This document shows, in pieces, positions 28,626 through 49,323 of a stretch of DNA of 60,370 nt; the first letter of the stretch is position 1, and each line of letters opens with the position of its first letter. The stretch comes from a virus. Its lineage: Duplodnaviria > Caudoviricetes. Both the position numbers and the translations under genes were made by a program. A model generated the notes under the pieces. That model had not been told where the DNA came from. It saw only the letters and a program-made list of their open reading frames with translations, and made no database searches. The stretch spans positions 1-60,370 of IMG/VR virus record IMGVR_UViG_3300036805_000098, one strand, 5' to 3'.

Positions 28626-29450
28626 ATGCGCATTGCTGTTACCGGCGGGTCGGGCTTCATCGGCCGGGCGACCATCGCCGCCGCCGTCCGCTCCGGCCAC
28701 GTCGCCTGGAGCTTCGACCGGGAGCACGGGGACGACGTACTCGGGTCGCTGGAGCACCTGGACGGCGCCGACGCCGTGATCCACCTCGCGGGCGTCCTCG
28801 GCACGGCCGAGCTGTTTGACGACCCGTACACGGCCGTCAACATCAACGTCACCGGAGCCCTGCACATCCTGGAGTGGTGCCGGGCGCACGGCGCCGCCTA
28901 CGTCGGCATCACCATGCCGCCGGTCTTCCCGAGCATCTACACCGCAACCAAGGTCTGTGCCTCCCGGCTGGCGACCGCCTACCACCACGCCTACGGCCTG
29001 AAGGTCAGCCACGTGCGCGCCTTCAACGCGTACGGGCCCGGTCAGGCTCACGGCCTCGGCCACCCGCAGAAGATCCTGCCGACCTTCGCCCGGTGTGCCT
29101 GGGAGGGGAAGCCGATCCCGATCTGGGGGTCCGGGGAGCAGCTTGTCGACCTGGTGCACGCGGACGACGTCGGCCAGATGCTCGTGGACGCGACGCGGTT
29201 CGGCCGGGACGCGGTGTTCGATGCCGGGACGGGTCACCCGATCACCGTCAACACCCTGGCCAACTTCGTGCTCCGGACCACCGGGTCCGATGCTGGTGTG
29301 CAGCACCTCCCGATGCGCAAGGGCGAGCGGGAGACCGCCATCTCTGCCGAGGGCGACGGCTGGAACCTCCTGAGCTGGAAGCCCGAGCTGAACTGGGACC
29401 GGCTGGCCGCCGCCGTCCGCAGCTACGAGTTCGCGGAGCTTCCGCTGTGA
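28626..29450 (+). CDS. NAD-dependent epimerase/dehydratase
   Basis: VTGGSGFIG, HLAG, YTATK, FNAYGPG. Confidence 0.9.
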   Translation: MRIAVTGGSGFIGRATIAAAVRSGHVAWSFDREHGDDVLGSLEHLDGADAVIHLAGVLGTAELFDDPYTAVNINVTGALHILEWCRAHGAAYVGITMPPVFPSIYTATKVCASRLATAYHHAYGLKVSHVRAFNAYGPGQAHGLGHPQKILPTFARCAWEGKPIPIWGSGEQLVDLVHADDVGQMLVDATRFGRDAVFDAGTGHPITVNTLANFVLRTTGSDAGVQHLPMRKGERETAISAEGDGWNLLSWKPELNWDRLAAAVRSYEFAELPL

Positions 29451-30109
29451 GGGCCGCCGTGATCACCTGCATCACGGATGGGTACGAGCTGCTGAAGCCC
29501 GTGCTCCCGCAGGTCGGCGCCGACGTCGAATGGATCTGCGTGACCGATGGCCGACCCCTCCCGCTGGCGGATGCGGCCGAGGGCTGGACGATGGTCTGCG
29601 AGCCGTCGTTCGCCGGGCTGCACCCTAACCGTGCTGCCAAGCGGCCCAAGCTCGAACCGTGGCGGTACACGGACGCTCCGGCCTCGGTGTGGATCGATGG
29701 AAGCTACCGGGTGACGTCCCCGCACTTCGTGTCCGAGGCCCTGGATCTGGCCCGGCCCATCGCGCAGTTTGTCCACCCCTGGCGGGACTGCTGCCTGGAG
29801 GAGGCCGAGTTCAGCGCCACCCTGGCCAAATACGCGGGCGAGCCCCTGGAACTCCAGGCGAAGACCTACCGGGAGCGCGGCATGCCGCCGCACTGGGGGC
29901 TCTGGGCATCCGGCGTCATCGCCCGGCACCACACCCCCGAGGTCCGGTACTTCGGCGAGAAGTGGCGCGACGAGATCCAGCAGTGGACCTTCCAGGACCA
30001 GGTGAGCGAGCCCTACGCCCTGCGGAAGTCCTTCCTGGTGCCGGACACCCTGCCCGGCGACCACATCACCAACCCGTGGCTCAACTACGAGGGAAGCGCG
30101 AGGCACTGA
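29447..30109 (+). CDS. DUF616-like putative glycosyltransferase
   Basis: ITDGYE, WIDG, HPWRDC, QDQVS motifs. Confidence 0.65.
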   Translation: MRAAVITCITDGYELLKPVLPQVGADVEWICVTDGRPLPLADAAEGWTMVCEPSFAGLHPNRAAKRPKLEPWRYTDAPASVWIDGSYRVTSPHFVSEALDLARPIAQFVHPWRDCCLEEAEFSATLAKYAGEPLELQAKTYRERGMPPHWGLWASGVIARHHTPEVRYFGEKWRDEIQQWTFQDQVSEPYALRKSFLVPDTLPGDHITNPWLNYEGSARH

Positions 30110-30588
30110 TGACCAGCATCGAGATCGGCGGAGGGTCGATCGCCCAGCCGGGCTGGATCAACCTGGATAGCCGCAATGGCCTCGGCCCGTGGCGCCGGGA
30201 GGCGCAGGAGACGCCGTGGCCGACCTCGGACGGGACCGTCGACCACATCCTGGCGAGCCACATCCTGGAGCACGTCCCGGCCGGGCAGGCCCGGATCGAC
30301 ATCTTCAACGAGGCGCACCGGGTGCTGAAGCCAGGGGGCATCTTCGAGGTGAAGCTGCCGCTGATCATCACCGAGAGCGGGCTGCCCACCTGGCACTCGA
30401 TCGCCGACCCCACGCACATCAGTTTCTGGTGCCGGGAGAGTTTCTACTACTTCATGCAGGCGGAGCCCGGCGCGCCCGGTCAGGCCGTGTTCGCCGCGAA
30501 CGCCGACTACGGCATCAAGCTCTGGAGGGAGATCTCCTGGGCGATCAACAGCGGGTTCGAGGGCCACTGGAGGGCAACTCCGGCATGA
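30109..30588 (+). CDS. class I SAM-dependent methyltransferase
   Basis: IEIGGG, SHILEH, HRVLKPGG, DPTH. Confidence 0.8.
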   Translation: MTSIEIGGGSIAQPGWINLDSRNGLGPWRREAQETPWPTSDGTVDHILASHILEHVPAGQARIDIFNEAHRVLKPGGIFEVKLPLIITESGLPTWHSIADPTHISFWCRESFYYFMQAEPGAPGQAVFAANADYGIKLWREISWAINSGFEGHWRATPA

Positions 30589-31304
30589 GCTACGAACGAG
30601 ATCCAGATCTGATGAACGATCTTCAGGACTACATCGAGGGGGACTCCCGGACGGCCGACGCTGCCGCCCGGCGGATCGACGCCCGGGGTGGGGAGGAGAG
30701 CCGCAACGGGGTGACGGTCGTCATGCCGTGCATTCCCCCGCGCTCCGGCGCCGAGCGGCCGGGGACGATGCCCCGGGCGATGCACTCGGTGCTGACCCAG
30801 ACTCGGCCGGTCGATGCGATCAGCATGGCGTTCGACCACCGCCACGAGGGCGCGGCCACCACCCGAAACCGCGCGCTGTCCGGGGTGAAGACCGAGTGGA
30901 TGGCGTTCCTGGACGACGACGACACCCTCAACCCCGACCACATCGAGAAGCTGATGCACCACGCCGAGGCGACCGGCGCCGACCTGGTGTATCCGTGGTT
31001 CGACGTCGTCAACGGGTTCGACCCCTTCCCGCAGTACGCGGGGAAGCCGTTCGACCCCGAGGCGCTGCGGAACGTGCAGAACTACATCCCGGTGACGGTC
31101 CTGGTGCGGACCGGCCTGGTGCGGGGGGTGGGCGGTTTCGAGCCGCGCAACACCTCGGCCGCACCGGGCGCGAGCCCCTGCGAGGAGTGGGGGCTCTGGC
31201 TGAAGCTGCTCGCCGTCGGCGCGAAGTTCTCGCACCTGCCGGAGCGCACCTGGTGCTGGCACTGGCACCCCGGCAACACCTCGGGGAGAGGAGATCAGTG
31301 GTGA
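30585..31304 (+). CDS. GT2 glycosyltransferase
   Basis: AATTRNRAL, AFLDDDD, EEWGLW. Confidence 0.82.
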   Translation: MSYERDPDLMNDLQDYIEGDSRTADAAARRIDARGGEESRNGVTVVMPCIPPRSGAERPGTMPRAMHSVLTQTRPVDAISMAFDHRHEGAATTRNRALSGVKTEWMAFLDDDDTLNPDHIEKLMHHAEATGADLVYPWFDVVNGFDPFPQYAGKPFDPEALRNVQNYIPVTVLVRTGLVRGVGGFEPRNTSAAPGASPCEEWGLWLKLLAVGAKFSHLPERTWCWHWHPGNTSGRGDQW

Positions 31305-31528
31305 AGCGACCTACGGCAAAGAAGGTCCCGGACACCCGGGCCGTCAAGGGTCTGAGGACCACGGTCGAGCCGCACGAGTTCGAGCGGGCGGGGTGGCGCC
31401 GGTGGCTCTGCCGGTACTGCTACGCCCCGAAGAAGCTCCACCCCCGCACCGGATGGGTCCGGCTCCGGCCGCTGAACGATCACACGTACCTGTCGGTGGA
31501 CGCACCGCACTTCGACGAAGGGTGGTGA
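31301..31528 (+). CDS. hypothetical protein
   Basis: Coupled ORF, CRYC. Confidence 0.5.
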   Translation: MKRPTAKKVPDTRAVKGLRTTVEPHEFERAGWRRWLCRYCYAPKKLHPRTGWVRLRPLNDHTYLSVDAPHFDEGW

Positions 31529-31534
31529 GGGGCC

Positions 31535-32197
31535 GTGGGTGAGGCGAAACGGCGCCAGGGACAGCCCCGCAGCCGTCTCACGGTGGCAGCGGTCATACCG
31601 ACAATCCCGGGCCGGGAGAAGCTGCTTGAGAGGGCTCTCGCCTCGGTCCACGCGCAGACCCGGAAGGTCGACCAGGTCGTGGTCGAGCGGGACAGCCTGC
31701 GTACCGGGGCAGCCCAGTCCCGCAACCGGGCGATGCAGCGCGTCACCGCCGACGTGATCGCCTGGCTGGACGACGACGACGAGTGGCTGCCGCACCACGT
31801 CATGGCGTGCATGCGGGTGCTGGAGGCGGACCCCTCGGTCGACCTGGTGTACCCGGTGCCCCGGATGGTCAACGGTCGGGACCCGACAGCGGTCGCCCAT
31901 CAAGGGCGTCTGGTGCTCCCGTGGGGCATCCGGTTCGGCAAGGAGCAGGAGGCCCACCTCCGGCGGAACGGCTCGTTCATCCCGATGACGCACCTGGTGC
32001 GTACCGAGGCGGTCCGCCGGGTCGACGGCTTCCCCGAGGGGTTCGTCCTGCCGGATGGCCGGTACCGGGGCGAGGACGAGGCATACCTCATCCGGCTGCT
32101 GGATGCGGGGGCGCACTTCGAGCACCTGAACAGGAAGACGTGGCGCTGGTACGCGCACCCGGCCACGTCGACCGCCGGGCGGGGCGACCGCCGGTGA
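31535..32197 (+). CDS. GT2 glycosyltransferase
   Basis: VIPTI, SRNRAM, AWLDDDD, GED. Confidence 0.82.
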   Translation: MGEAKRRQGQPRSRLTVAAVIPTIPGREKLLERALASVHAQTRKVDQVVVERDSLRTGAAQSRNRAMQRVTADVIAWLDDDDEWLPHHVMACMRVLEADPSVDLVYPVPRMVNGRDPTAVAHQGRLVLPWGIRFGKEQEAHLRRNGSFIPMTHLVRTEAVRRVDGFPEGFVLPDGRYRGEDEAYLIRLLDAGAHFEHLNRKTWRWYAHPATSTAGRGDRR

Positions 32198-32259
32198 AGA
32201 GCACCGAGGCCGGGCGGGTCTACCACTGGCGATGCGGATACGAGGAAGAGGAGCTGGAC

Positions 32260-32622
32260 ATGGCCGTAGGAAGAGCAGAACTGAAGGTCGACGTCGTACC
32301 CGATCCGGACAGCGTGGCGGCCCTGGCCCGGACGATGTACCAGATGTCCGAGGTGATGGCGGCCGTGGCGGACAGCTTCCGCCGGGCATCCGGGAGCCTG
32401 TCCGCTCTCGCGGCGGACCTGTCCGCCGGACAGACTGGCGACCCCGACTGCGAGACCGGCGACGTCCGGACCTGCACGACGGCGTGTCCGGTACACGGCG
32501 ACATCCCGCCGTCCGCCCCGGCGGGCGACTGTCCGCTCTACCCGGACGGACGGCCCCACAACCCGCACGACTGGTCACCTCGTCCGGGCGACCTTGTCCG
32601 CTGTCCGGGAGTGCCCGGCTGA
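32260..32622 (+). CDS. hypothetical protein
   Basis: GAGGAG RBS. Confidence 0.5.
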   Translation: MAVGRAELKVDVVPDPDSVAALARTMYQMSEVMAAVADSFRRASGSLSALAADLSAGQTGDPDCETGDVRTCTTACPVHGDIPPSAPAGDCPLYPDGRPHNPHDWSPRPGDLVRCPGVPG

Positions 32623-32662
32623 CTGTCCGTCCGCTGTCCGCCCCAACTGTCCGCCCTGTCCG
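32595..32662. repeat. TGTCCG repeat cluster
   Basis: Six TGTCCG copies at 32595, 32602, 32624, 32635, 32648, 32657. Confidence 0.8.
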
Positions 32663-32738
32663 GCTCATCGCTGGACAGGGCGGACTTTTGCATTTACCTT
32701 TGTCGAACCACGTATATCGAGCGGACAGGAAAAGGATC

Positions 32739-32996
32739 ATGGCGAAGCCCACGAGTTACGTCTACCACGCGGAGGGGCTGTGCGGCCCGGACACGATCAG
32801 CGTGGACGGGTTCTGCTGGCCGATGTCCGGAGCGGACACCCTCACCGAGGCGGACATAGCCGGGTGGATCACAACCCACGTGGCCGAGAGGTTGGAACGT
32901 CCGGTGAACGAGATCGTGATCGGCACCCTGTCCTGGACGGACATCGAGCCCCTGGCGGACGAGGCGGACACGACGGACGAGGAGACCGGACAGTGA
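32739..32996 (+). CDS. hypothetical protein
   Basis: AAAGGA RBS; first gene of the transfer module. Confidence 0.6.
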   Translation: MAKPTSYVYHAEGLCGPDTISVDGFCWPMSGADTLTEADIAGWITTHVAERLERPVNEIVIGTLSWTDIEPLADEADTTDEETGQ

Positions 32997-34156
32997 AGCT
33001 TCCCAAGATCTTCAAGCACGCGGCCGAGCCGGACGTCCGCCGGACGACCCGGACCGTGTCCGCCGCCGCGCCCCGGTGGGTCGGCTGGTTCACGGACATC
33101 GGCCGTCCGCTGTCCGCCATCGTCGTCATGGTGCTCTGCGCACCGGGTGAGCGGCACCTCGCGCTACTGGCCGGGTGGGGCCCAACCCTGTCGTGGGGGA
33201 TGGCGGGCCTCCTGGTCATGTACGCGGGCATCGCAGCCGTCGTGGCGACCGTCCGGCCCAAGGGTGCCCCCGGAAAGAAGACGGCCGTCATCGGCGCCAT
33301 TCTGTCCCTTCTCCTGGCCATGGCCGCGCAGCCGGTGAGCCACTACTTCGTGACCGGATGGATGTCGGCCTCCCCGAGGGCGCCGTTCTGGCTCGTGACA
33401 GTCGTGAGCTGCGTGCCGCCGTTCGTCATGGGTCACCTGCTGCACCTTGCGGCCGACCCGGGCGGACAGCCCGAGGCGGACACCCGGACGGCGCGGGAGA
33501 TCTACGAGTCCGGGTTCGTCCGGGCGGACGAGATCACCGACCACGGTCCGGTCCCGCACCCGGACGATGTCCGGCCGGTCCAGGCGGACACGGCGGACGA
33601 GGACCCGGACGACGGGGCGGACATCCCGTGGAGCAACCCGGCTCGCTGGACGGCGGACACGGAGGACGAGGCGGACGACTACCCGGTGGAGGGCGGACAC
33701 GAGATCCTGCCTGCGGGCGTCCTGTCCGAATTCTCGTTCGGCCCGCTGTCCGGGTACGCCTGGGGTGAGCCGCCCCGGCGTCCGGTGCCGACCGAGGCGG
33801 ACAGCGGACAGTCTCTCGTGCGGGACAACGGCGTCACGATGAGCGCCGCCGAGTTCAACAGCCTGCTCCCGCCGCCCGGCGAGACCCGGGAGAGCGCGGA
33901 CGACCTGATCCAGGCTGTCCGGAACCTCGCCGCCTCCACCCCGGACACCGGACGGACAGCGTCCGCCGGACAGCCGGACGCCCCGGCGGACGGACCGGCC
34001 CAGGGCCTGTCCGGCTGGATCAAAGATCTCTGGAACCTCAACCCGGACATGTCGGCCGCCGACGTCCGGACGGCCGTCCGGGACCGCTTCCCGGACATCA
34101 AGACGGACACCGTCCGCAAGGCGGTCAAGCGAGCAGGGGAGGCGATCCAGTCATGA
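32993..34156 (+). CDS. Spd-like (plasmid spread) membrane protein
   Basis: Four N-terminal TM segments, acidic linker, helical C-terminus; directly upstream of traB-like gene. Confidence 0.55.
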   Translation: MKLPKIFKHAAEPDVRRTTRTVSAAAPRWVGWFTDIGRPLSAIVVMVLCAPGERHLALLAGWGPTLSWGMAGLLVMYAGIAAVVATVRPKGAPGKKTAVIGAILSLLLAMAAQPVSHYFVTGWMSASPRAPFWLVTVVSCVPPFVMGHLLHLAADPGGQPEADTRTAREIYESGFVRADEITDHGPVPHPDDVRPVQADTADEDPDDGADIPWSNPARWTADTEDEADDYPVEGGHEILPAGVLSEFSFGPLSGYAWGEPPRRPVPTEADSGQSLVRDNGVTMSAAEFNSLLPPPGETRESADDLIQAVRNLAASTPDTGRTASAGQPDAPADGPAQGLSGWIKDLWNLNPDMSAADVRTAVRDRFPDIKTDTVRKAVKRAGEAIQS

Positions 34157-36084
34157 GCAAGGGCCGGAGCAACACCAACGAGGAGTCGATCAAGATCAAG
34201 CGCACCCATCATCGGCCACTGACCGAGCGGGCGTTCCCGTACGTGCTGCCGTGGGGGCTCGGGTTCATCACCCTGCCCCTGGGGGAGTTCCTGGCCTGGC
34301 AGGCGTCGGGCCCGTTCATGACGATCATCGTCATGCTCTGCGCGGGCCTGCTGACCTGGACGACTTACGTCACCTGGGACCGGCGCCACGAGCACACCCG
34401 CAACGCGGCCACCGTGATCACGGCTGGGTTCTCGGGATGGCTGGTCGCCTGCACCGCGAGCAGCCCGGACAACCGGCCGATGCTGACCACGTGGGTGATC
34501 ATGTGGATCATGCTCTCGCTGATCTGGAACATCCGTCACGCGGGCATCAGCACCGAGAACAAGCACGACCAGCCGTCGGCTCGGGCCGAGTCGGTGTGGG
34601 CCCCGATCCGGGCGCTCAAGAAGTCCCGCACCAAGGACGTCCACACCACCCCGGACGGCGCCGTCCGCATCACCGTGCAGCACCCCGGCGGACAGGCGAC
34701 GACGGACGATGTCCGCGCCGCCCGGAAGAACATCGCCGGACGCCTCGCGGTGGACGAGTCGGCCGTGTCCGTCGGCAACGTCTTCGGCCGGGCGGACCAG
34801 TCGGTGGTCACTGTCCGGCCGGACAACCCCACCGGACACGTCGTCCGCTGGACCGGACCGTCCGCCCCTGGACAGTCCATCGCGGACAAGCCTGTCCGCC
34901 TCGGTGTCCGGGCGGACAGCTCGCCGCTGGCGTTCTGGCTCACGGGCGATGACGACACCTCGCGCCCGGCGCCGCACACGCTCTGGACCGGCATGACCGG
35001 CTCCGGCAAGACCGAGGCGTTCTGCGTCGCGGTGCTGGAGATGCGCAGCCGGATCGACTGCGTGCCGGTGGTCGCCGACCCGGTCAAGTTCATGCTCTCA
35101 TTCGGGGACATTGCGGACGCCTTCGCCATCGCGGCCGACGGCCCGGACCAGACCGCGCAGCTCATCCGGAACCTGCCGGAAACGCTGCGCTACCGGGCCT
35201 GGGTGCTGGGCAAGCTCGGGTACAAGCAGTGGGTTCCCGAGTGCTACACCAAGCACGGCATCCCGGTCGTCCCGGTGCACATCGAAGAGGCCGCGCAGGC
35301 TCTCGGCAGCAACGACGACTTCAAGATGTCGATCCAGACCGCCCGCGCGCTGGGCATGCCGATCTCCGCATCCATGCAGGTCGCGGTGTTCCGGAGCATG
35401 CCGCGTGAGGCCCGAGCCCAGTTCGGCAATTCGATCGCCTTCGGTGTCCGGGAGATGCAGGATGCCCGGTTCGCCCTCACGGACACAACGCTGAACGCGG
35501 GCGCCGACCCCACCAAGTGGGCCAACAACCACCCCGGCCGCTGCTATGCCGAGCTGGTGGGGACGCCCGAGGAGAAGTGGGCCGAGGAGTGCCGGGTCTA
35601 CAAGGTCACGCTTGACGAGAAGCGCGCCACGCTGGAGGCCACCCGGCCGCACTGGGCACAGATCGACCCCGGTACGGCCATGCGGCTGGGGGCCGGGATC
35701 GACCGGCCCGACGCCTCGGTACTGGCCGGGATCGGCAGCTCCAACGCCTACGCCGACCCGGACCCGTTCGAGGAGAACACCGACCCCGTCAAGCTCGGAA
35801 AGACGATCATCGACCTGTCCACCGAGGGCCGTCCGTCCAAGGAGGACGCCCGGGAAATGATCGGTGCCAAGATCGACGAGCTGGAGATGAGGGGTGCGGA
35901 AACGATCTCCATCACGGACTTCAACGACGTGATCCCGCTGCTCGGGCGGCACCGCACGTGGGTGTATCTGGAGCTTGACCGGCAGGCCGGTTCGGGTCGG
36001 CTGGAGAGGCTGCCGGGAGACCGGAGGGAGTACACGATCCGGCCCCGTGGGAGCAACGGCCACCTTGCCCCGGCGGGTGCATGA
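34153..36084 (+). CDS. traB: TraB-like FtsK/SpoIIIE conjugative DNA translocase
   Basis: N-terminal TM segments, GMTGSGKT Walker A, HIEEAA Walker B, ARALGM..SASMQ, C-terminal wHTH-like RHRTWVYLEL. Confidence 0.78.
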   Translation: MSKGRSNTNEESIKIKRTHHRPLTERAFPYVLPWGLGFITLPLGEFLAWQASGPFMTIIVMLCAGLLTWTTYVTWDRRHEHTRNAATVITAGFSGWLVACTASSPDNRPMLTTWVIMWIMLSLIWNIRHAGISTENKHDQPSARAESVWAPIRALKKSRTKDVHTTPDGAVRITVQHPGGQATTDDVRAARKNIAGRLAVDESAVSVGNVFGRADQSVVTVRPDNPTGHVVRWTGPSAPGQSIADKPVRLGVRADSSPLAFWLTGDDDTSRPAPHTLWTGMTGSGKTEAFCVAVLEMRSRIDCVPVVADPVKFMLSFGDIADAFAIAADGPDQTAQLIRNLPETLRYRAWVLGKLGYKQWVPECYTKHGIPVVPVHIEEAAQALGSNDDFKMSIQTARALGMPISASMQVAVFRSMPREARAQFGNSIAFGVREMQDARFALTDTTLNAGADPTKWANNHPGRCYAELVGTPEEKWAEECRVYKVTLDEKRATLEATRPHWAQIDPGTAMRLGAGIDRPDASVLAGIGSSNAYADPDPFEENTDPVKLGKTIIDLSTEGRPSKEDAREMIGAKIDELEMRGAETISITDFNDVIPLLGRHRTWVYLELDRQAGSGRLERLPGDRREYTIRPRGSNGHLAPAGA

Positions 36085-36090
36085 GAGGAG

Positions 36091-36145
36091 CTGTGAGGCC
36101 CCGTGTGAGGACCCTGTGATTGGGGCCGTGTGAGCGGCCCTGACC
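36091..36145. repeat. short TGTGA(G) direct repeats downstream of traB, candidate clt locus
   Basis: CTGTGAGG, GTGTGAGG, CTGTGATT, GTGTGAGC within about 45 bp. Confidence 0.45.
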
Positions 36146-36234
36146 ATAGGTATTCGCGTTCAGTTCACAAGATCGAAAAGGGTCTCCTGTGTCACACGGC
36201 AGAGGGCGCCCGGGAGCGGAGAAGGAGAGCGGAG

Positions 36235-36666
36235 ATGAGCACTGGATTCCCGGCGCCCGAGGGCGACCGGCAGAGGATGGCCGAGCTGGCCGAGTACGTC
36301 CGGGGAGAGATCGTTTCGCGCGGCGGTGATCTTGGCCAGACCAAGATCGAACTTCACTACCACGCGGCCCCGGTGAAGATCGACACGGCGCCGGTCGACG
36401 CCTCGGCCGGAGACGCCGTCCTGGCGAAGTACACGCCGTACTTCATCGTCCTTCTCGGGGGCGTGGTCATCCTCGCGTGCGTAGGCGTGGTGACGGTTCT
36501 CCTGCTGCCCGCCCTGCTCACGATGGTGACCATGATCGCGGTGGTGATGGGCGGCTTCGCCGTGATGTCCATCGCGGTCGCCGCCTCGGTCAAGAGCCTG
36601 AAGCAGTCGGCGAGTGACCGGGACGTGGTCCGGCAGGCGGTGAAGGGTGGCCGTCGGCGCCGCTGA
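36235..36666 (+). CDS. SpdD-like membrane protein
   Basis: Two long TM segments, basic C-terminus, follows traB. Confidence 0.5.
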   Translation: MSTGFPAPEGDRQRMAELAEYVRGEIVSRGGDLGQTKIELHYHAAPVKIDTAPVDASAGDAVLAKYTPYFIVLLGGVVILACVGVVTVLLLPALLTMVTMIAVVMGGFAVMSIAVAASVKSLKQSASDRDVVRQAVKGGRRRR

Positions 36667-36699
36667 AGCCTGGTTTTGTAACGACTAGATAACGGAATC

Positions 36700-36722
36700 G
36701 GCCCCCTCGGGGGCCTTTTTTC
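36700..36722 (+). terminator. rho-independent terminator
   Basis: GGCCCCC-TC-GGGGGCC followed by a T run. Confidence 0.85.
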
Positions 36723-36779
36723 ATGATCAGATTACCTTAACTTTACCAAGTATTTCTATCGCCCCAGGTCAGAGCCCTG

Positions 36780-36830
36780 CCTAAAGTTTGCGATCTTATC
36801 CCATGGGGCGTACCTTTGGGGTAGTTCGAA
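36780..36830 (+). promoter_or_regulatory. variant of the repeated early-like promoter
   Basis: CTAAA...TACCTTTGGGGTAGTTC resembles the TACTTTTGGGGAAGTTC family. Confidence 0.55.
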
Positions 36831-37175
36831 AGCACGGCGGGGCCAAGCGGTAAGGCCCTCGGGAAACCACCGGGAACCCGGTGAGGCCCAAACGGCGCAA
36901 GTCGCCACCGGAGACAGGGCACCGACCCTCCACAAGAAAACGGCAGGCGAGTTCAGCAGCGGAAACGCTGCCTGGGGACGGGCCTTGATCAGCCGAGGAC
37001 ATACGGCACTGACTGATCACTGCGAGCACACATCCAGGCGGGGTAAGCGCGAGGGGCGAACCGACGGCACAGACGACCCAACGGAGCCAACCGGCGGTGC
37101 CCCTAGGCGCCCCTGATGGGACTTAGCCCGGAGGGTCGGGAGCACGACCCGCACGACACAGCACGTAAGTAGACA

Positions 37176-37276
37176 GCCGAAACACCCGGCCGGACGGTTC
37201 GCTCGTACCTCTAAACGATGCATAACCGACCGGGTGTCGGCGGGGATGGCCTCCCCGCCCTGACGAGGCAGGCCAC
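37176..37276 (+). ncRNA. type II hammerhead ribozyme 1 (extended stem III)
   Basis: GCC-GAAA-CACCCGG...CCGGGTG-TC-GGCGGGG-ATGGCCT-CCCCGCC-CTGACGA-GGC-AGGCCA; predicted cleavage after 37238. Confidence 0.9.
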
Positions 37277-37294
37277 ACGGACTTAGGAGCCGAC

Positions 37295-37555
37295 ATGCCG
37301 ACCTACACGATCAAGTACAACGCAGGCACGAACCACATCGAGGGTGTCGCCATCCGCACCGAGAGCACCGGGACCGAGAGCGGCGGCGTTGTCGCCGACT
37401 ACTCGCTGAGCGCCTGCGGGGCACTGACCCGGGGCCGGTTCGCCACGGGCCGGAGCTTCACCGACCTGACCGAGGCGCTGCGGATCGCCCGCCTCGGCCG
37501 CCGCAAGGTGTGCCGCACCTGCGAGAAGGCCGCACTCGCCGAGATCGAGAGCTGA
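37295..37555 (+). CDS. hypothetical protein, ribozyme-flanked
   Basis: AGGAG RBS, CRTC. Confidence 0.75.
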   Translation: MPTYTIKYNAGTNHIEGVAIRTESTGTESGGVVADYSLSACGALTRGRFATGRSFTDLTEALRIARLGRRKVCRTCEKAALAEIES

Positions 37556-37557
37556 GA

Positions 37558-37626
37558 GCCGAAACGGCGCCCTCCGGGGCGCCGTCGGCGGGGGCTGGCC
37601 GCCCCGTCCTGACGATGGCAGGCCAC
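37558..37626 (+). ncRNA. type II hammerhead ribozyme 2
   Basis: Full core GAAA / GTC / CTGACGA(T) with stems I-III; predicted cleavage after 37586. Confidence 0.85.
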
Positions 37627-37645
37627 ACGGACATAGGAGCCGATC

Positions 37646-37864
37646 ATGTCGATGACCCGCAAGCACTTCGTCGCCTTCGCCCAGATCATCGCGGCCGAGG
37701 TCGCCGAGGCGAACGAACTCACCCCGGTCCGCCGGAACGCCGCGCTGCGGACGCTGCGCAGCACCGCTCGGGCGATGGCCCGGGAGTTCGCCTACGACAA
37801 CCGGAACTTCGACCGGGCGCGGTTCATGGACGCGTGCGGACTCGGGGACCCCAACGGCAACTGA
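37646..37864 (+). CDS. hypothetical protein, ribozyme-flanked
   Basis: MTRKHFVAFA...DNRNFDRARFMDAC; AGGAG RBS. Confidence 0.75.
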   Translation: MSMTRKHFVAFAQIIAAEVAEANELTPVRRNAALRTLRSTARAMAREFAYDNRNFDRARFMDACGLGDPNGN

Positions 37865-37870
37865 TCAACA

Positions 37871-37939
37871 GCCGAAACGGCGTCCTCCGGGGCGCCGTCG
37901 GCGGGGGCTGGCCGCCCCGTCCTGACGATGGCAGGCCAC
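37871..37939 (+). ncRNA. type II hammerhead ribozyme 3
   Basis: Same core; predicted cleavage after 37899. Confidence 0.85.
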
Positions 37940-37958
37940 ACGGACATAGGAGCCGATC

Positions 37959-38135
37959 ATGCCGTATGGGACCCTCTGCCCCAAGTGCGGGCACCCGGAG
38001 ACCGACTACAACAACAGCGACCCCGAGCAGTGCGGCGGCTGCCGCAACCGGGCGTTCCGCGCTTCACACGGGGGCGTCGACCGGGTGACCGACTTCCTGT
38101 TCCCGGGACTCAAGAACCTCTATCCGACCGACTGA
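37959..38135 (+). CDS. 58-aa Zn-ribbon-like protein, ribozyme-flanked (absent from the ORF track)
   Basis: MPYGTLCPKCGH...QCGGCRN...PTD stop; AGGAG RBS. Confidence 0.7.
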   Translation: MPYGTLCPKCGHPETDYNNSDPEQCGGCRNRAFRASHGGVDRVTDFLFPGLKNLYPTD

Positions 38136-38200
38136 GCCGAAACGGCGCCCCGGCGCCGTCGGCGGGGGCTGGCCGCCCCGTCCTGATGATGGCAGGCCAC
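38136..38200 (+). ncRNA. type II hammerhead ribozyme 4
   Basis: CTGATGA(T) core, shortened stem III; predicted cleavage after 38160. Confidence 0.85.
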
Positions 38201-38218
38201 ACGGACATAGGAGCCGAC

Positions 38219-38398
38219 ATGATCGTTACCCCCGACATGATCGAAGCGCTGCGGACTCTCCGGCTCGCAAGCCGGACGGGTCTCGGCCTGGACGGTGCGG
38301 CTCGGGAGGCGTTTGACACCTTGGACAACCAGGGAGCATTCGCCGAGATCGACATCACCACCGGATACGAGATCTTCAGCGACGAGGATTTTCAGTGA
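38219..38398 (+). CDS. hypothetical protein
   Basis: AGGAG RBS after ribozyme 4. Confidence 0.65.
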   Translation: MIVTPDMIEALRTLRLASRTGLGLDGAAREAFDTLDNQGAFAEIDITTGYEIFSDEDFQ

Positions 38399-38700
38399 CG
38401 GTACCGACCCTCTACCACGGGACGGCCGAGGCGTTCGCCCCGGGCGACACCGTCGACCCCTCGTACGAGCTGGGAGCGCGGCGCGGCCGGGCGTTCGTCT
38501 ACGCGACGACCGACCCGGACGTTGCCCGCAACTACGCCCGGCACAAGGCGTGGGTCAAGGGGATGTTCGAGGAGGACGTGAGGGCCCGGACGTACGAGGT
38601 ACGGCCGACCGGCCCCGTGGAACCGGACGACACCGTAGACGGCCGTTTCGCCGCCTGGAGGACCCGGCGGCCGATGGAGGTCGTGCGGGAGCTTCCGTAA
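38395..38700 (+). CDS. Arr-like ADP-ribosyltransferase
   Basis: LYHGT...PGD...VYAT...YEVRPTG.VEPD...WRTRRPMEVV resembles the Arr family pattern. Confidence 0.65.
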   Translation: MTVPTLYHGTAEAFAPGDTVDPSYELGARRGRAFVYATTDPDVARNYARHKAWVKGMFEEDVRARTYEVRPTGPVEPDDTVDGRFAAWRTRRPMEVVRELP

Positions 38701-38768
38701 CGATCGGGACTCGATTTAACTAAATCGGTCGTCGGTCTCACCTTCTTCCCCTACTTTTGGGGAAGTTC
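38698..38768 (+). promoter_or_regulatory. repeated promoter/operator copy A
   Basis: TAACGATCGGGACTCGATTTAACTAAATCG...TACTTTTGGGGAAGTTC. Confidence 0.75.
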
Positions 38769-38859
38769 ACCAGGAAGGCGCCGGGACGAGGTCACTACGT
38801 TGACCGACCGGCAACGGGGTCGCAACCGGCGCCTTCCGCCCCGAGTCGAGGAGCACACC

Positions 38860-38985
38860 ATGGGAACGATCTTCGAATCCGCCAAGCGCGCCGTCAACCG
38901 GCTCGCGAAGACCTTCACCTGCCCCCGCTGCGGGGCGCCGCTCACCGCTGCGGGCCACTGCTCGCAGACGTGCGGCGGGATCTGA
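38860..38985 (+). CDS. 41-aa Zn-ribbon protein
   Basis: GAGGAG RBS, CPRC...CSQTC. Confidence 0.65.
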   Translation: MGTIFESAKRAVNRLAKTFTCPRCGAPLTAAGHCSQTCGGI

Positions 38986-38987
38986 GA

Positions 38988-39056
38988 GCCGAAACGGCGC
39001 CCTCCGGGGCGCCGTCGGCGGGGGCTGGCCGCCCCGTCCTGATGATGGCAGGCCAC
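38988..39056 (+). ncRNA. type II hammerhead ribozyme 5
   Basis: Same core; predicted cleavage after 39016. Confidence 0.85.
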
Positions 39057-39105
39057 ATGCAGACGCCGACCGACCGGGGCGGCGCCCAGCAGAAGGAGAA
39101 AGATC

Positions 39106-40251
39106 ATGCAGATCAACCTGCGGAACAGCAACCTCGACGGTCTCGTCAACGAGCTGACCGAGCAGCGCGACCGCAAGCAAGACCTGATCGTCCCCGCGCG
39201 GGACCTCTGGTCCCACGAGGGCCGGGTGTTCGTCCGGGGCGCCGGTGAGCCGGTGCTCACCGCCGACGGCGTCACCACGGGCAACCTGGAGTTCGCCCCG
39301 TCCGACGTCTACGACGAGGGAGCGGCGGCCAAGCTCGGGTTCCCCCGGGCGTACCTCCGCACGCTGCGGTCGTCCGGCCGGTCGGACCTGATCGACCAGA
39401 ACCTCAACGGCCTGCTCCACGGGAACAAGAACCTGGAGGTGCCCGGCGACACCCGGCGCTTCATGCTCCGGACGTTCAAGGGCCAGGACGGCGGGCTGGG
39501 CATGGCCCGCGCGCTGCTGTCCGACTCGTACCGCACCATCGACAACTGGGACGTCCTGATGGCGACCCTGGAGGGCATGCAGGCGGCCGGACTGGACGCG
39601 CACGTCGTGCGGCAGGCCGATCTCACCAACCGCCGGATGTACGTCCAGATCGTCGCCCCCGAGGTCCAGGCGCTCGCGCCCGAGCTGCTGAAGGACTACC
39701 GCTCGCCCTTCTCGGGCAACCGGGGCGCCGACAACCCGACCATGTTCGCCGGGTTCGTGGTCAGCAACAGCGAGACCGGCGGCGGGGCGTTCACGATCAC
39801 GCCGCGCCTGGAGATCCAGATCTGCACCAACGGCATGACGATCACGCAGGACGCCGTGAGCCGTCGGCACCTCGGCTCGAAGCTGGAAGAGGACGGCGTC
39901 GTCCGCTACAGCGACGAGACCCAGGCGAAGAACCTGGAGCTGATCAAGCTCCAGACCCGGGACGCGGTCCGGACCTTCCTGGACGTCGACTACATGAACA
40001 AGGTGATCACCCGGGTCACCGAGAAGGCGGGCCGCCCGGTCAGCCGCCCGGAGGAGATCGTCAAGACGGTCGTCAAGCGCGAGGCGTACACCAAGGAGGA
40101 CGCCGAGGGCATCCTCGCGCACTTCATCAAGGGCTCGGACATGACGCACGGCGGCGTCTTCCAGGCCATCACCAGCTACGCGCAGACCGTCGACAACGCG
40201 GACCGCGCCTACGCCATGGAGGCGGACGCCCTCGCGGCGGCCGGTCTCTGA
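39106..40251 (+). CDS. DUF932/DUF945-like phage protein
   Basis: RALLSDSY, SNSETG, ICTNG, RRHLG motifs. Confidence 0.7.
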   Translation: MQINLRNSNLDGLVNELTEQRDRKQDLIVPARDLWSHEGRVFVRGAGEPVLTADGVTTGNLEFAPSDVYDEGAAAKLGFPRAYLRTLRSSGRSDLIDQNLNGLLHGNKNLEVPGDTRRFMLRTFKGQDGGLGMARALLSDSYRTIDNWDVLMATLEGMQAAGLDAHVVRQADLTNRRMYVQIVAPEVQALAPELLKDYRSPFSGNRGADNPTMFAGFVVSNSETGGGAFTITPRLEIQICTNGMTITQDAVSRRHLGSKLEEDGVVRYSDETQAKNLELIKLQTRDAVRTFLDVDYMNKVITRVTEKAGRPVSRPEEIVKTVVKREAYTKEDAEGILAHFIKGSDMTHGGVFQAITSYAQTVDNADRAYAMEADALAAAGL

Positions 40252-40360
40252 GCACCGACTGATCCACCCGCACGATCTCCCGCCCCGGAGCGCACCGCCG
40301 GGGCGGGGGAGGGACCCTACAGAGTGCAGGCCCGGGGGCACACAGCAACCGGGCCGACCA

Positions 40361-40429
40361 GATCGCGCAGCTTGATGGCCGAGCGCCCCGACGGGGGAGG
40401 TGCGGGTTCGAATCCCGCCGCGATCACCA
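40361..40429 (+). ncRNA. tRNA-like RNA with truncated anticodon arm
   Basis: Acceptor GATCGCG/CGCGATC + ACCA, D arm, T arm GCGGG-TTCGAAT-CCCGC; anticodon arm only CCCC-GACG-GGGG. Confidence 0.75.
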
Positions 40430-40482
40430 CGGTTCCGGCAATCGCCGGGGCCGAGCCCCACCGAAGAGACAGGAACAAGATC

Positions 40483-40662
40483 ATGGCCGACTCCCCCGTC
40501 AAGCTCGTGAAGGTCTTCTTCAGCCTGAACCTCAAGGAGATGAAGGAGGAGTACATGGCGTCCGGCAACCCGGCCAAGACGCTCACCGACGCCGACAAGG
40601 CGGACTTCACCACGGCGCTCACGCCCGACCCGGCGACCGGCGTCCCCAGCTACACGTACTAG
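40483..40662 (+). CDS. hypothetical protein
   Basis: AGGA RBS, high GC3. Confidence 0.65.
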   Translation: MADSPVKLVKVFFSLNLKEMKEEYMASGNPAKTLTDADKADFTTALTPDPATGVPSYTY

Positions 40663-45108: not shown

Positions 45109-45179
45109 GCTCCCATGGGGTAATGGATGCCCGGCGGCTTCTCAAGCCGCAGATGCCGGATCGTGACCGGCTGGGAGCA
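45109..45179 (+). tRNA. tRNA-Glu(CUC)-like with atypical T loop
   Basis: Complete cloverleaf, anticodon loop TT-CTC-AA, T loop ATCGTGA. Confidence 0.7.
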
Positions 45180-45297
45180 CGGCGGGTGACCGAGGGAACC
45201 CTTACCCCTCGGCAGGAGAGGCCAACTCCGGTGGTGAACGCTTCGCGAGAAGCCCCGGAGAAAGATCTCCTGAGTCGTAGTAGCGGCCCCCGCGCTT

Positions 45298-45370
45298 AGG
45301 TCCGTAGTCCAACTGGAAGGGCGCCCGCCTCCAAAGCGGGACGATGTCGGTTCGAGCCCGGCCGGACCTG
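45298..45370 (+). tRNA. tRNA-Trp(CCA)
   Basis: Cloverleaf, CT-CCA-AA, GGTTCGAGCCC. Confidence 0.88.
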
Positions 45371-45412
45371 CTCAAAGATCACCCAGCAAGATCAGGAACG
45401 CGAGACAGGAGA

Positions 45413-46054
45413 ATGACCATGACGTCGACCTTCGACCGAATGACGGTCACCGTCCCCGAGGGCGAGTTGGAGGGGCTGTCCGTCCAGCGCTTCACGTTCG
45501 ACCCGCAGAGCATCGCGGGCGTCCGGGCGAGGATGTCCGGCCGGTCCATCCCGGCGGGTACGTACACCCGGCTGGTGACCCGGGACACGTTCTGGATGAG
45601 CGACACCCCGGCCGAGAAGCGCGACCACGCGGAGGCGGTCTTCCAGATCTCCAACCTCGGGGCGCGCCGGGTGCTGATCAACGGCCTCGGTCTCGGAATG
45701 GTGCTGGCGGCGGCGCTCAGCTTCGACCACGTCGAGCACGTGGATGTCGTCGAGCGGGACGCCCGCGTGATCAAACTCGTGGGCCCGCACTACACCACCG
45801 ACCCCCGGGTGAACATCGTGCACGGCGACGCGTACGAGGTGGCCCGTGGGTGGCCCGCCGGTACCCGGTGGGACGTCGGCTGGTCGGACATCTGGCCGGA
45901 GCTGAACCCCGACGACCTCGCCGACCATGCCCGGCTGAGCCGGAGCTACGGGCGCCGGTGCACCTGGCACGGCTGCTGGGCTCACGACCTGCTGCTCCGG
46001 CGCGCTGCTCAGGAGCGTCGCGAGATCAAGCGCTATGAGGAGTGGATGTCATGA
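45413..46054 (+). CDS. SAM-dependent methyltransferase (spermidine synthase-like fold)
   Basis: WMSDT, VLINGLGLG, VVERD, GDAY, DIW. Confidence 0.75.
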   Translation: MTMTSTFDRMTVTVPEGELEGLSVQRFTFDPQSIAGVRARMSGRSIPAGTYTRLVTRDTFWMSDTPAEKRDHAEAVFQISNLGARRVLINGLGLGMVLAAALSFDHVEHVDVVERDARVIKLVGPHYTTDPRVNIVHGDAYEVARGWPAGTRWDVGWSDIWPELNPDDLADHARLSRSYGRRCTWHGCWAHDLLLRRAAQERREIKRYEEWMS

Positions 46055-46287
46055 ACGACATCGAGGTGGGGATCGTGTACGAGGCGCCGGGCCTGCCGTA
46101 TTCGGCCGACTACCGCACCTGGTCGGATCACGTGGACGGCTGTGCGCACTGCGTACAGGCGATCAAGGACCAGACGTTCAGCTTCGAACCCCGGGACCCG
46201 TCCCGGCTGTGCGACCTCGGCCGGGAGCTGGATTCCAAGCTCGCGGCGTCGATGGTCTTCCAGCGCGAGACGTCCCGGCTCAACTAG
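46051..46287 (+). CDS. hypothetical protein
   Basis: ATGA overlap, GAGGAG RBS. Confidence 0.6.
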   Translation: MNDIEVGIVYEAPGLPYSADYRTWSDHVDGCAHCVQAIKDQTFSFEPRDPSRLCDLGRELDSKLAASMVFQRETSRLN

Positions 46288-46314
46288 CACGACCCCGGCC
46301 CTCGGGCCGGGCCC

Positions 46315-46385
46315 GCTCCCGTGGGGTAACGGATGCCCACTGCGCCTTCACCGCAGAGATACCGGATCATGACCGGTCGGGAGCA
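46315..46385 (+). tRNA. tRNA-Glu(UUC)-like with C33 and atypical T loop
   Basis: Cloverleaf paralogous to 45109-45179; anticodon loop CC-TTC-AC, T loop ATCATGA. Confidence 0.62.
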
Positions 46386-46590
46386 CGTCGGACACCGAGT
46401 CCGTGGAGAGAAGCGATTCCGTGAAGCGAGAGCAAGTCCGCAAGACCCGCAAGGCGTCACAGAACCGCAGCGAGAGCGACGAACAGGACCAGAGCGGCAC
46501 CGTCGACCGGGCCAGGGCCCGTAAGGCCCGCAGAAGGGCGCTCAGGGCTTCCGCTCAAGCGGCAGCCTTCCTGTCCAGGACGGAGGAGAA

Positions 46591-47001
46591 ATGATCGATT
46601 ACCGGAAGGTCTTCCGGGACGCGTTGGTAGGGCGCGGCTACGCGCCGTACCGGGCCGAGATGCTGGTGGCGGAGTTCGCCGACGCGGTCGCCGATGGCGC
46701 CCGGCAGAACAGCGACCACGCCGCCTACCGGAAGCTGGCCGACGCGGTCAGCCTGATGGTCAACGAGGTGAGCGACCCGGACAACTGGGACGGGGACGAC
46801 TCCGAGGTGGGCATCCTGATCCGGTTCGTCCAGTGGGCACCGGACATGATCGCCCACCAGGTGGCCGACAAGATCCGGAGCCAGGCCCTCGGGGGTCAGT
46901 ACGCGGCCGACTTCACCGACCCGTTCGAGAAGAACCGCGCCGGGCAGTGGGTCCGCAAGGCCGACGGCGCCCCGGTGCCGTGGCCGGTGGTGACGTCGTG
47001 A
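46591..47001 (+). CDS. hypothetical protein
   Basis: GGAGGAG RBS. Confidence 0.65.
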   Translation: MIDYRKVFRDALVGRGYAPYRAEMLVAEFADAVADGARQNSDHAAYRKLADAVSLMVNEVSDPDNWDGDDSEVGILIRFVQWAPDMIAHQVADKIRSQALGGQYAADFTDPFEKNRAGQWVRKADGAPVPWPVVTS

Positions 47002-47426
47002 CCGGGGCCAAGCCGGACAGCGTGCTGTTCATGGGAGCCTCGGCCGAGCAGATCGCGACCCTGGCCAACCACCTCCAGTGGTACGCCTCGCCGGGGTGGA
47101 TGCGCCGGAAGGACGACGCCCTACTGGTCGCCGACCTCGTCACCTACCAGGTGGCCGGGTCGACACTCCAGACTCCCGGACAGCAGCGCAAGGCGTACGA
47201 CTACGCCCACGAGCTGCGCCGGGAGCTGTCCCGCCGGAAGCTCATGCCAGTGGCCGACCTGCGCATCCCGCGCTGCTCGGTCTGCAAGCACGGCACGGAG
47301 AAGCTGTTCGCCACGACCGAGGCGACGCACAACATCGTGGACGACGACGACGAGAAGAAGATCTTCCCGCCACTGTGCGTGCGGTGCTGGAGTCGCCTCC
47401 ACGTGGACAGCGACGAGGAGGACTGA
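46998..47426 (+). CDS. hypothetical protein with two CxxC
   Basis: Coupled ORF. Confidence 0.6.
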   Translation: MTGAKPDSVLFMGASAEQIATLANHLQWYASPGWMRRKDDALLVADLVTYQVAGSTLQTPGQQRKAYDYAHELRRELSRRKLMPVADLRIPRCSVCKHGTEKLFATTEATHNIVDDDDEKKIFPPLCVRCWSRLHVDSDEED

Positions 47427-47429
47427 CCC

Positions 47430-48011: not shown

Positions 48012-48154
48012 TCATGGGCAAGGGAATTCCGTCACCGCCGAACGGCGGCCCGAGGGACCCCCGCGACCCGGTCGGCCAGAACCCGACCGGCCGCCCCACC
48101 AAGTCCAGCGCGGGCAAGCGGCGCCAGGAAGAGCGCAAGGGCAGGAAGTGAGGT

Positions 48155-48212
48155 CTGAGCACAGCATGGCGGCGGGCGCCCCTCGGGGCGTCGGTCGGCC
48201 ACGGGCGCTCAG
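48155..48212 (+). repeat. intergenic hairpin family 2, copy 4 (divergent)
   Basis: AGCATGGC...GCCCCTCGGGGCG...GCCACGGG with substitutions that keep pairing. Confidence 0.8.
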
Positions 48213-48237
48213 CCCGGAGGGAGAAGGAGAGGGAGCA

Positions 48238-48740: not shown

Positions 48741-48777
48741 AACCCTGAAGCGATCAAGGAAGAAAGAGAGCACGATC

Positions 48778-49056: not shown

Positions 49057-49118
49057 GACCGAGTCGTGACCCGGGGCCACCTACCCGATGGCCCCGGGGT
49101 ACGGTTTACTTAATTCGA

Positions 49119-49190: not shown

Positions 49191-49200
49191 CGCAAGACGA

Positions 49201-49274: not shown

Positions 49275-49323
49275 CGCAGTACCCCGCACCACAGAGCCGT
49301 TGCCACCACGAGAATGGAAGATC

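Follow-up and report, generated by a model that had tools for sequence, protein, structure and literature searches.

Phages are assumed to travel from cell to cell only as particles, whereas Streptomyces plasmids travel as naked double-stranded DNA (dsDNA) driven by a single pump; the question raised by the locus described here is what a tailed phage does with the genes for such a pump. The locus occupies positions 32739-36666 of a 60,370-bp stretch of viral DNA from a soil metagenome (hereafter the window), which is the full IMG/VR record IMGVR_UViG_3300036805_000098, classed as linear and given a CheckV completeness of 73% of a phage genome estimated at ~84 kb. It is a terminator-bracketed, plus-strand operon of four open reading frames (ORFs; 85, 387, 643 and 143 amino acids), the third of which encodes a homologue of the plasmid transfer protein TraB, and a dense array of a short sequence word lies in and just 5' of it. 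We lean, with limited confidence, towards reading the operon as a Streptomyces-plasmid-type TraB dsDNA transfer module carried by a siphophage of ~84 kb whose host would be a mycelial high-GC actinomycete, with the array serving as a clt-like cis site.

The 643-amino-acid product of the third gene (34153-36084) matches the NCBIfam plasmid_TraB model NF041214 with an E value of 2.9e-110 and 369.7 bits, residues 23-631 aligning to positions 2-634 of the 639 in the model, and no FtsK family model in NCBIfam matched it. A tblastn search with this protein returned 51 plasmid records, 45 of them from Streptomyces and 20 covering at least 80% of the query; many of the matched genes are annotated traB, these annotated genes being 26-29% identical over 93% of the query and plasmid TraBs overall 26-31%, and the best plasmid match, at 36% identity, is pS1D4-14.2. 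In PHROGs the protein matches phrog_24831 (E 6e-59), a family of no known function. The AlphaFold2 (AF2) model, built from a 37-sequence alignment with a predicted local distance difference test score (pLDDT) of 80.5, predicts four N-terminal membrane-anchor helices (23-50, 54-77, 80-102 and 108-131; pLDDT 76-92), a beta-rich domain, an ATPase motor and a C-terminal winged helix, the last spanning 563-629 with helices at 563-579, 587-597 and 601-614 and a hairpin at 617-629, all within the reach of the NF041214 alignment. The top Foldseek matches of this model are the FtsK motor structures 6t8b, 2iut and 2ius (E ~1e-14, TM-score 0.60-0.67 on the target, ~400 aligned columns), followed by the conjugative coupling protein TcpA and then by EccC and EssC. 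A Walker A motif, GMTGSGKT, is found at 280-287 and a Walker B-like motif, VHIEEA, at 375-380, and the 47 invariant columns among the 37 TraB sequences include G280, G285, K286, E379 and A380. A preliminary description of this locus, made from the letters alone, had proposed a TraB-like FtsK ATPase with membrane segments, Walker motifs and a winged-helix-like tail, and each of these features is borne out; a grouping with non-conjugative FtsK ATPases was not seen at the level of family models, and our quick tree, which is unrooted, included plasmid TraBs only as comparison.

The operon in which traB sits opens with gpA (32739-32996, 85 amino acids), an acidic, lineage-specific protein without a transmembrane (TM) helix, for which no family was found in Pfam, PHROGs or NCBIfam and no tblastn match in 43 related loci. 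The GTG start of gpB (32993-34156, 387 amino acids) overlaps the gpA stop as GTGA, and the ATG start of traB overlaps the gpB stop as ATGA; gpD (36235-36666, 143 amino acids), which had been counted into the coupled gene run first described for this locus, begins at an ATG behind GGAGAAGGAGAG 151 nt past traB and is thus not translationally coupled. Two intrinsic-terminator-like hairpins on the plus strand bracket the unit: one with a 16-bp stem at 32649-32685 and a T-rich tail to 32695, at which the sugar-gene operon 5' of it stops and the tra unit starts, and one at the operon end, already recognized as a strong terminator, in which the hairpin GGCCCCCTCGGGGGCC is followed by TTTTTT at 36700-36715 (to 36722). 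Terminator-like sites number eight in 31000-40500, as against 3.5 ± 1.9 in shuffles.

Both flanking partners of traB are membrane proteins, as had been described. In gpB, AF2 places TM helices at 28-59, 69-86, 95-120 and 132-154, followed by a disordered acidic linker (175-298) and a C-terminal three-helix bundle (335-386, pLDDT 92-97). We found 53 homologues of gpB, none of which carries a name, and its TM domain resembles membrane proteins of the Streptomyces phages mu1/6 (48%), Success, Ponzi and Attoomi. A fold search with gpB gave a best Z of 7.4 and generic helical matches, and its C-terminal domain aligns to many three-helix nucleic-acid-binding domains, none of them outstanding. The gpB family occurs in three of four TraB-positive complete relatives and in none of eight TraB-less ones, and we regard gpB as a candidate membrane partner or DNA tether of TraB. 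The gpD protein combines a 62-residue hydrophobic stretch, long enough for two TM helices, with a basic tail; tblastn places matches to it at the same position in 7 of 26 loci of related phages, where it corresponds to the small membrane proteins 3' of traB, and small ORFs with one or two TM helices follow traB in most loci.

The second element that carries the argument is the array, which occupies both strands of 32306-34918. An unbiased scan of the whole window for clustered 8-mers found nine clusters, eight of which fall in 32368-34007, and 10 codon shuffles contained no cluster of at least five copies. The heptamer GCGGACA occurs 31 times in the window compared with 18.4 ± 4.3 in shuffles (0 of 100 shuffles reach 31), with 26 of the copies inside 32368-34918, and 54 of the 107 copies of the hexamer CGGACA lie within 32306-34905, a span of ~2.6 kb. 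The local density of the array is 15-fold and its consensus is rGCGGACAg; it extends from the 3' part of ORF 32194-32622 across the intergenic gap, gpA and gpB into traB, of which it takes in the first 40%. Of the 26 clustered GCGGACA copies, 16 are on the plus strand and 10 on the minus strand, they fall into five frame classes, three are intergenic, and the array is interrupted over the conserved TM-coding part of gpB; on these grounds we take it as a DNA-level signal placed in tolerant sequence rather than as the trace of a peptide repeat.

The same arrangement recurs well beyond the window. In 23 of 25 related phage loci (the exceptions being L004 and L006) the 7-mer with the strongest local enrichment in the ~20-kb locus sits beside traB, either in the 2-3 kb before it or just into it, for which the binomial chance is ~4e-9 if 35% were expected. 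The word itself varies by lineage: CGGACA, GGGACA, AGGACA, CGAAAGC, ATCCGGA and GCTCAGC occur, the loci with words other than GGACA being L003, L016, L018 and L020. Three control replicons with plasmid TraBs behave alike: in pSN22 the top cluster is CGTGAGC (14 of 15 copies, in the membrane-protein gene beside traA-traB), in a 14-kb plasmid of S. anulatus it is CGTGAAC (10 of 12 copies, within its DUF2637 gene), and in the plasmid-phage-like pCQ4 it is CGCATCA (9 of 10 copies, again in the membrane-protein gene beside traA-traB). In the accessible text of Thoma et al. (2015, PMC4447253), clt consists of direct 8-bp repeats bound by the cognate TraB, and by analogy the array is probably a clt-like cis site. 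A second CGGACA cluster was considered as a cis site and set aside; it lies outside the window's sequence, at 8.4-9.8 kb of the complete relative G001, and is due to a 60-bp tandem repeat (~8400-9800, minus strand) that codes for an Ala/Thr/Pro-rich LPDTP-repeat protein inside the structural module.

The partners of traB among the relatives point in the same direction. The usual order in the clade is a polytopic membrane protein, a soluble protein of ~160-190 amino acids, TraB, a two-TM protein of 64-94 amino acids and a membrane protein of ~130 amino acids. The soluble protein directly 5' of traB matches the NCBIfam plasmid_TraA model (NF041213) in nine of ten clade loci, with E values of 1e-3 to 5e-13 that all remain below the cut-off, and a profile built from 20 of these TraA-like proteins retrieves pSN22 TraA with an E value of 6e-17. 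DUF2637 (PF10935) is found above its cut-off in 2 of 16 equivalent membrane proteins of relatives (L013 and L021), and the gene order there, DUF2637 - traA - traB, is that of the S. anulatus plasmid. As a possible TraA in the window we considered ORF 32194-32622, but with 11 targets searched its match to the profile was not significant (E 0.029), and the counterpart of this ORF in G001 aligns to it at an E value of only 0.01.

These loci belong to a phage lineage that has kept the module for some time. TraB homologues at E ≤1e-10 number 213 proteins, none of them named, and in many cases the contig that carries them is 75-97 kb long. A TraB relative is encoded on 42 viral contigs, and for 21 of these the terminase too is shared with the window, at 58-84% identity. 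In the quick, unrooted tree the TraBs of the clade, 26 in number, form one branch, with a Shimodaira-Hasegawa-like approximate likelihood ratio test (SH-aLRT) support of 100, apart from those of pSN22, pRL1, the S. anulatus plasmid and pCQ4, which argues against recent capture; judged by its sequence, the window protein is a TraB homologue on a separate deep branch and not an equivalog. The gene is under purifying selection, with ratios of nonsynonymous to synonymous substitution rates (dN/dS) of 0.34-0.45 in six pairs. Neither megablast with the operon nor tblastn with TraB found a match among 50,697 phage records, a collection from which near relatives may be missing, and a profile search of genome contigs with the TraB alignment yielded one irrelevant weak match among the matches listed. 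One clade member, pS1D4-14.2 (L016), has been deposited as a plasmid (98.8 kb) from a Streptomyces strain in culture and encodes portal, capsid, tape measure, integrase, ParA and a TraB homologue annotated as hypothetical. Across 27 clade records there are seven tyrosine integrases, no serine recombinase and three ParA proteins (AAA_31), and the window and G001 have none of these. A terminase-first survey found 199 relatives, of which the best 80 were kept; 49 of these were newly searched, 16 were already known, and L135 and 14 small contigs were left out. TraB is present in 3 of the 11 newly found terminase relatives that are at least 90% complete, and, once the 14 complete ones known before are added, in 17 of all 25 such relatives among the best 80 of 199. 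Together with the way the gpB family tracks TraB, this distribution indicates that the module comes and goes as a unit, and it is accessory and dispensable for this type of phage.

Taken as a transfer module, the operon could work as follows. TraB would enter the hyphal membrane through its four N-terminal helices and assemble into an FtsK-like ring, and the dense GCGGACA array in and just 5' of the operon would act as a clt-like cis mark on the phage genome, bound by the TraB C-terminal winged helix, by the membrane-held three-helix domain of gpB, or by both. The motor would then pump phage dsDNA across a cross-wall or into a touching hypha, assisted by the small membrane proteins, and the phage genome would reach new compartments without virions, be it during lytic growth or in a plasmid-like carrier state. 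Virion-free spread, which the preliminary description had put forward, is a reasonable proposition, and the case for it is strengthened by the clt-like array. The observation behind that description is confirmed and its interpretation is partly supported; the idea is also less new than it assumed, given pZL12 and what is available of Thoma et al. (2015).

Several results weigh against this reading. The window TraB falls short of the NF041214 equivalog cut-off of 800 bits, which pSN22 TraB passes at 808.7; Pfam FtsK_SpoIIIE does not match it at E ≤0.01, a PDB sequence search returned nothing at E ≤1, and its Walker B-like motif has EE rather than DE. No TraA homologue was detectable with the 20-protein profile in the window or in its nearest loci (L005, L026 and L027), and no GntR-type TraR regulator was seen in Pfam scans of the window. 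The labels Spd-like and SpdD-like that gpB and gpD first received drew on position and topology only, and similarity searches do not support them: gpB has no Pfam family and no plasmid tblastn match at E ≤0.01, and neither protein has demonstrable homology to plasmid Spd proteins in Pfam, NCBIfam or plasmid tblastn searches. What gpB does have is the Spd-type form, with four TM helices and a gene beside traB, a likeness of form that does not prove kinship; its nearest Atlas neighbours are DUF2637 clusters (score 0.84-0.85), a weak language-model lead. The orientation of the array is mixed, as against the direct repeats of plasmid clt, and the array is several times larger than those of the control plasmids. 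TraB is absent from 8 of the 25 terminase relatives that are at least 90% complete. Finally, L015, L016 and L018 have near-identical TraB winged helices with different words (CGGGACA versus CGAAAGC).

This last result suggests that the TraB winged helix may not be the reader of the array, and the membrane proteins beside traB offer another candidate. They carry at least four unrelated types of N-terminal anchor (hhalign between the gpB-type anchor and another class gave a probability of 0.2), and despite these differing anchors most of them have in common one C-terminal domain of ~50 amino acids, such that a profile made from 13 proteins of the window type recognizes it (E <1e-4) in 8 of the 12 proteins whose anchor is of another class. 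The domain is divergent in L016a, L018, L020 and L003, which hints that the membrane-tethered C-terminal domain might read the array, instead of or alongside the TraB winged helix. The idea is weakened by L016, which retains a canonical copy (L016b) and yet shows no GGACA enrichment. An apparent co-variation between the word and the TraB recognition helix, in which Gly before the conserved Trp accompanies GGGACA in 10 of 12 loci and Thr accompanies CGGACA in 4 of 6, is no more than suggestive, being confounded by relatedness and contradicted by L016 and L018. Separately, 3' of traB in pS1D4-14.2, a 149-amino-acid ORF (L016, 12220-12669) has a C-terminus matching positions 554-631 of the TraB model (E 1.7e-11) and is, to go by this alignment, a free-standing paralogue of the TraB DNA-reading domain; none was seen in the window. 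A more specific form of the transfer proposal can be framed for the lineages without integrase and ParA, in which the TraB module would act in productive infection, replicating genomes tagged with ~55 copies and held by gpB would be pumped through cross-walls or into touching hyphae, and the reader would be the membrane-tethered three-helix protein and not the TraB winged helix; we advance this form tentatively and think it rather doubtful.

The features that make gpB a candidate reader also fit a device for segregation or retention. On this view the array would act like a centromere or as a point of membrane tethering, recognized by the three-helix protein through which it is anchored, and TraB, acting like FtsK or SpoIIIE, would clear or pump phage DNA across closing vegetative or sporulation septa, so that in an infected or carrier mycelium each compartment or spore keeps a copy. 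Such a device would suit the FtsK fold of the motor, the very large and bidirectional array, so unlike the direct repeats of clt, and a window lineage that has neither ParA nor integrase, in which a carrier state would require some other means of inheritance; it would also suit a word that shifts while the TraB winged helix stays nearly constant, the non-GGACA loci L003, L016, L018 and L020 being those with a divergent membrane-protein C-terminal domain, although that co-variation loses force with the canonical L016b in a locus without GGACA enrichment. The sequence affinity of the pump, however, is to conjugative TraB and not to chromosomal FtsK, and TraA and DUF2637, in the same order, are partners of conjugative plasmids. 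In the available text of PMC4447253 the plasmid machinery performs transfer and spreading alike, so that segregation overlaps with the transfer module we favour; as a separate account we consider it unlikely.

Two further accounts would remove the link between pump and array, or function altogether. The membrane proteins and ATPase might serve host take-over or exclusion, blocking incoming plasmid or phage DNA or exporting or degrading host DNA, with the array as a regulatory or replication site unrelated to the pump. FtsK-like genes without an assigned role do occur in other Streptomyces phages, where the accessible parts of PMC11536984 and PMC13587820 tie them loosely to replication or development, the gpB TM domain is present in phages without a TraB match, and the module is accessory. 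Against this, 23 of 25 loci have an array next to traB and three TraB plasmids have one at the corresponding position, the full TraB architecture is retained, winged helix included, and no known defence or exclusion family turned up (no PADLOC search was made); we hold this account improbable. More improbable still is that the operon was left over from an ancestral fusion of plasmid and phage, is in decay and no longer serves any function in the window lineage, as the undetectable TraA, the missing TraR regulator and the 8 of 25 complete terminase relatives without TraB could suggest: no reading frame is broken, Walker A is invariant, as are 47 other columns, dN/dS stays at 0.34-0.45, the array is maintained at 15-fold local density, and the overlapping stops and starts and the operon's own terminators have been kept.

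If the module acts in productive infection, as in the more specific form of the proposal, one adsorption could take over many compartments, or even neighbours that lack the receptor, and a bacterial virus would then have a virion-independent way of passing from cell to cell. The pump has been retained, together with its partners and a very large candidate recognition array, in a distinct and widespread group of uncultivated soil phages of 76-98 kb, and clade members without visible means of lysogeny keep the module as well. Should it move phage DNA, the concepts of plaque and burst, a host range set by receptors, and estimates of gene flow among soil actinomycetes would need revisiting for mycelial bacteria. 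The lineage-specific words provide a ready test of protein-DNA specificity, and pS1D4-14.2 provides an experimental entry point.

The genome around the operon is that of a tailed phage, as the preliminary description had held. We called 94 genes in the window from GC content at third codon positions (GC3) and scanned 83 + 11 of them against PHROGs and Pfam. The window itself supplies terminase, lysis and tail genes, and the head and portal genes that complete the set are found in G001 (also L049), a complete, collinear relative of 84,514 bp with a 127-bp terminal repeat; by comparison with it, the ~20 kb absent from the window hold structural genes only, namely a portal-protease fusion, major head protein, adaptor, major tail protein and tape measure protein. 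The left end encodes on the minus strand the terminase large subunit, a holin, a LysM/peptidase pair, a thymidine-hypermodification-like cluster, a ParB-like protein and a primase-helicase-PolA fusion; from 16.1 kb rightward follow a helicase, an exonuclease, two ParB-like proteins, a sugar-modification cluster, the tra operon, many small genes, eight tRNAs and WhiB; and the right end has, on the minus strand, the C-terminal part of the tape measure protein, minor tail proteins, a GH25 endolysin and a glycosyltransferase. That no integrase is visible, as first reported, holds for the window, 73% complete, in which neither a tyrosine nor a serine recombinase was found, and for complete G001, which has no integrase, serine recombinase or ParA; the only partition-type genes in the Pfam and PHROGs scans of the window are those with ParB-like domains. 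In the terminase gene of G002, G008, G012, G013 and G024 the match falls into two pieces around an insert, which in pS1D4-14.2 is annotated as an HNH endonuclease and points to a mobile insertion in the packaging gene.

Other features of the window stand apart from the tra operon. The minus-strand cluster at 5399-9001 combines, by Pfam, a Tet/JBP oxygenase, a P-loop nucleotide kinase 3, a pyridoxal phosphate (PLP)-dependent enzyme and an amino acid:DNA transferase; the phage DNA may accordingly be hypermodified, which, if true, would be relevant to whatever protein reads the array. At 10914-15377, also on the minus strand, one ORF of 1487 amino acids joins DUF3854/D5_N primase-helicase modules to a family A DNA polymerase. 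Directly 5' of the tra operon, 28626-32197 on the plus strand encodes an NAD-dependent epimerase, a TOD1/MUCI70-like and two family 2 glycosyltransferases, and a methyltransferase; the glycosyltransferase gene at 31535-32197 stands before traB in 23 of the 26 clade loci, and another glycosyltransferase gene (51945-53015, minus strand) adjoins the lysis genes. Past the operon terminator lie ~460 bp without coding signal (36716-37180), AT-rich at the start and without DNA-level conservation in G001, which gave no significant RNA fold (z -1.34; 9 of 100 shuffles fold equally well). This spacer leads to the first of six plus-strand matches to the type II hammerhead ribozyme (Rfam RF02276; 37175-37277, 37557-37627, 37870-37940, 38135-38201, 38987-39057 and 44618-44684), which score 42-57 bits against a gathering score of 37, each sit in an intergenic gap just 5' of a small ORF, and constitute the ~95-nt direct repeat family of the window, five of the six lying within 3 kb 3' of the tra operon. 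A plus-strand ORF of 101 amino acids among them (38395-38700) matches Pfam Arr-ms, the rifampin ADP-ribosyltransferase family, with an E value of 5e-8 and 33.5 bits against a cut-off of 25, and its product looks like a small ADP-ribosyltransferase. Eight tRNA genes (two Glu, and Trp, Phe, Asn, Thr, Lys and Ala) lie amid small ORFs at 45109-50625 on the plus strand, and Rfam gives an additional tRNA-like match at 40361-40426.

Compared with known systems, the module resembles the tra-clt-spd regions of plasmids such as pSVH1, pSN22 and pIJ101. According to the accessible text of PMC4447253, TraB is the only protein whose loss abolishes transfer, and Spd membrane proteins direct intramycelial spreading. 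The window shares with these plasmids an FtsK-like TraB that has a membrane anchor and ends in a winged helix, a clustered short word beside tra, small flanking membrane proteins and a translationally coupled operon, and most clade members add TraA and some DUF2637 in the plasmid order. It differs in belonging to a phage replicon, which also has genes for capsid, tail, lysis, tRNAs and DNA modification, in its bidirectional array of ~55 hexamer copies over 2.6 kb, in having no TraR and in showing no demonstrable Spd homology. FtsK and SpoIIIE, with their guide words KOPS (FtsK-orienting polar sequences) and SRS (SpoIIIE recognition sequences), are alike in motor fold, C-terminal winged helix and short words; the affinity of the window protein, though, is to TraB, and its words are clustered at one locus rather than spread and polarised along the replicon.

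That plasmid transfer genes and phages can meet has been noted before. In the portion of Thoma et al. (2015, PMC4447253) available, SpdB2 homologues are cited for the temperate actinophages phiC31 and VWB, and Spd homologues on actinophages are suggested to help phage DNA spread; these phages have, by that account, a membrane protein only, whereas the window phage has the pump itself and a candidate cis site. A published case is the plasmid-phage pZL12/phiZL12 (Zhong et al. 2010, J Bacteriol 192:3747), known to us with its relatives pCQ4, pCQ3 and pSLE1 through the accessible text of PMC3583192, PMC4487206 and PMC5431353. Transfer of pZL12 is attributed there to the major tra gene and two neighbours (PMC3583192), and elements of its type have ParA/ParB (PMC4487206); as far as these sources go, the group resembles the window phage in joining tailed-phage structural and terminase genes to a TraA-TraB locus on one replicon of 85-90 kb. 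Within the limits of incomplete access to subscription papers, we found no account of the present clade or of clt-like arrays in phages. In pCQ4, GntR, traA and traB lie near the terminase (traA-traB 3.4 kb upstream) and a repeat cluster occupies the gene just upstream, as in the window. Relative to pCQ4 and pCQ3, the window TraB is ~30% identical over 79% and the terminase 39% over 37%; pCQ4 TraB groups with ordinary plasmid TraBs, whereas the window clade forms its own long branch, and the window array is about five times that of pCQ4. The pZL12-type elements have ParA/ParB and, in pCQ4, a GntR regulator, whereas ParA, integrase and GntR are all missing from the window and from G001, and the window shows no TraA either. 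The principle of the plasmid-phage is thus already known, and what the present locus adds to it is a separate and widespread phage lineage, many of whose members show no lysogeny genes, in which TraB branches deeply, a three-helix protein is tethered to the membrane and the array is unusually large and specific to each lineage.

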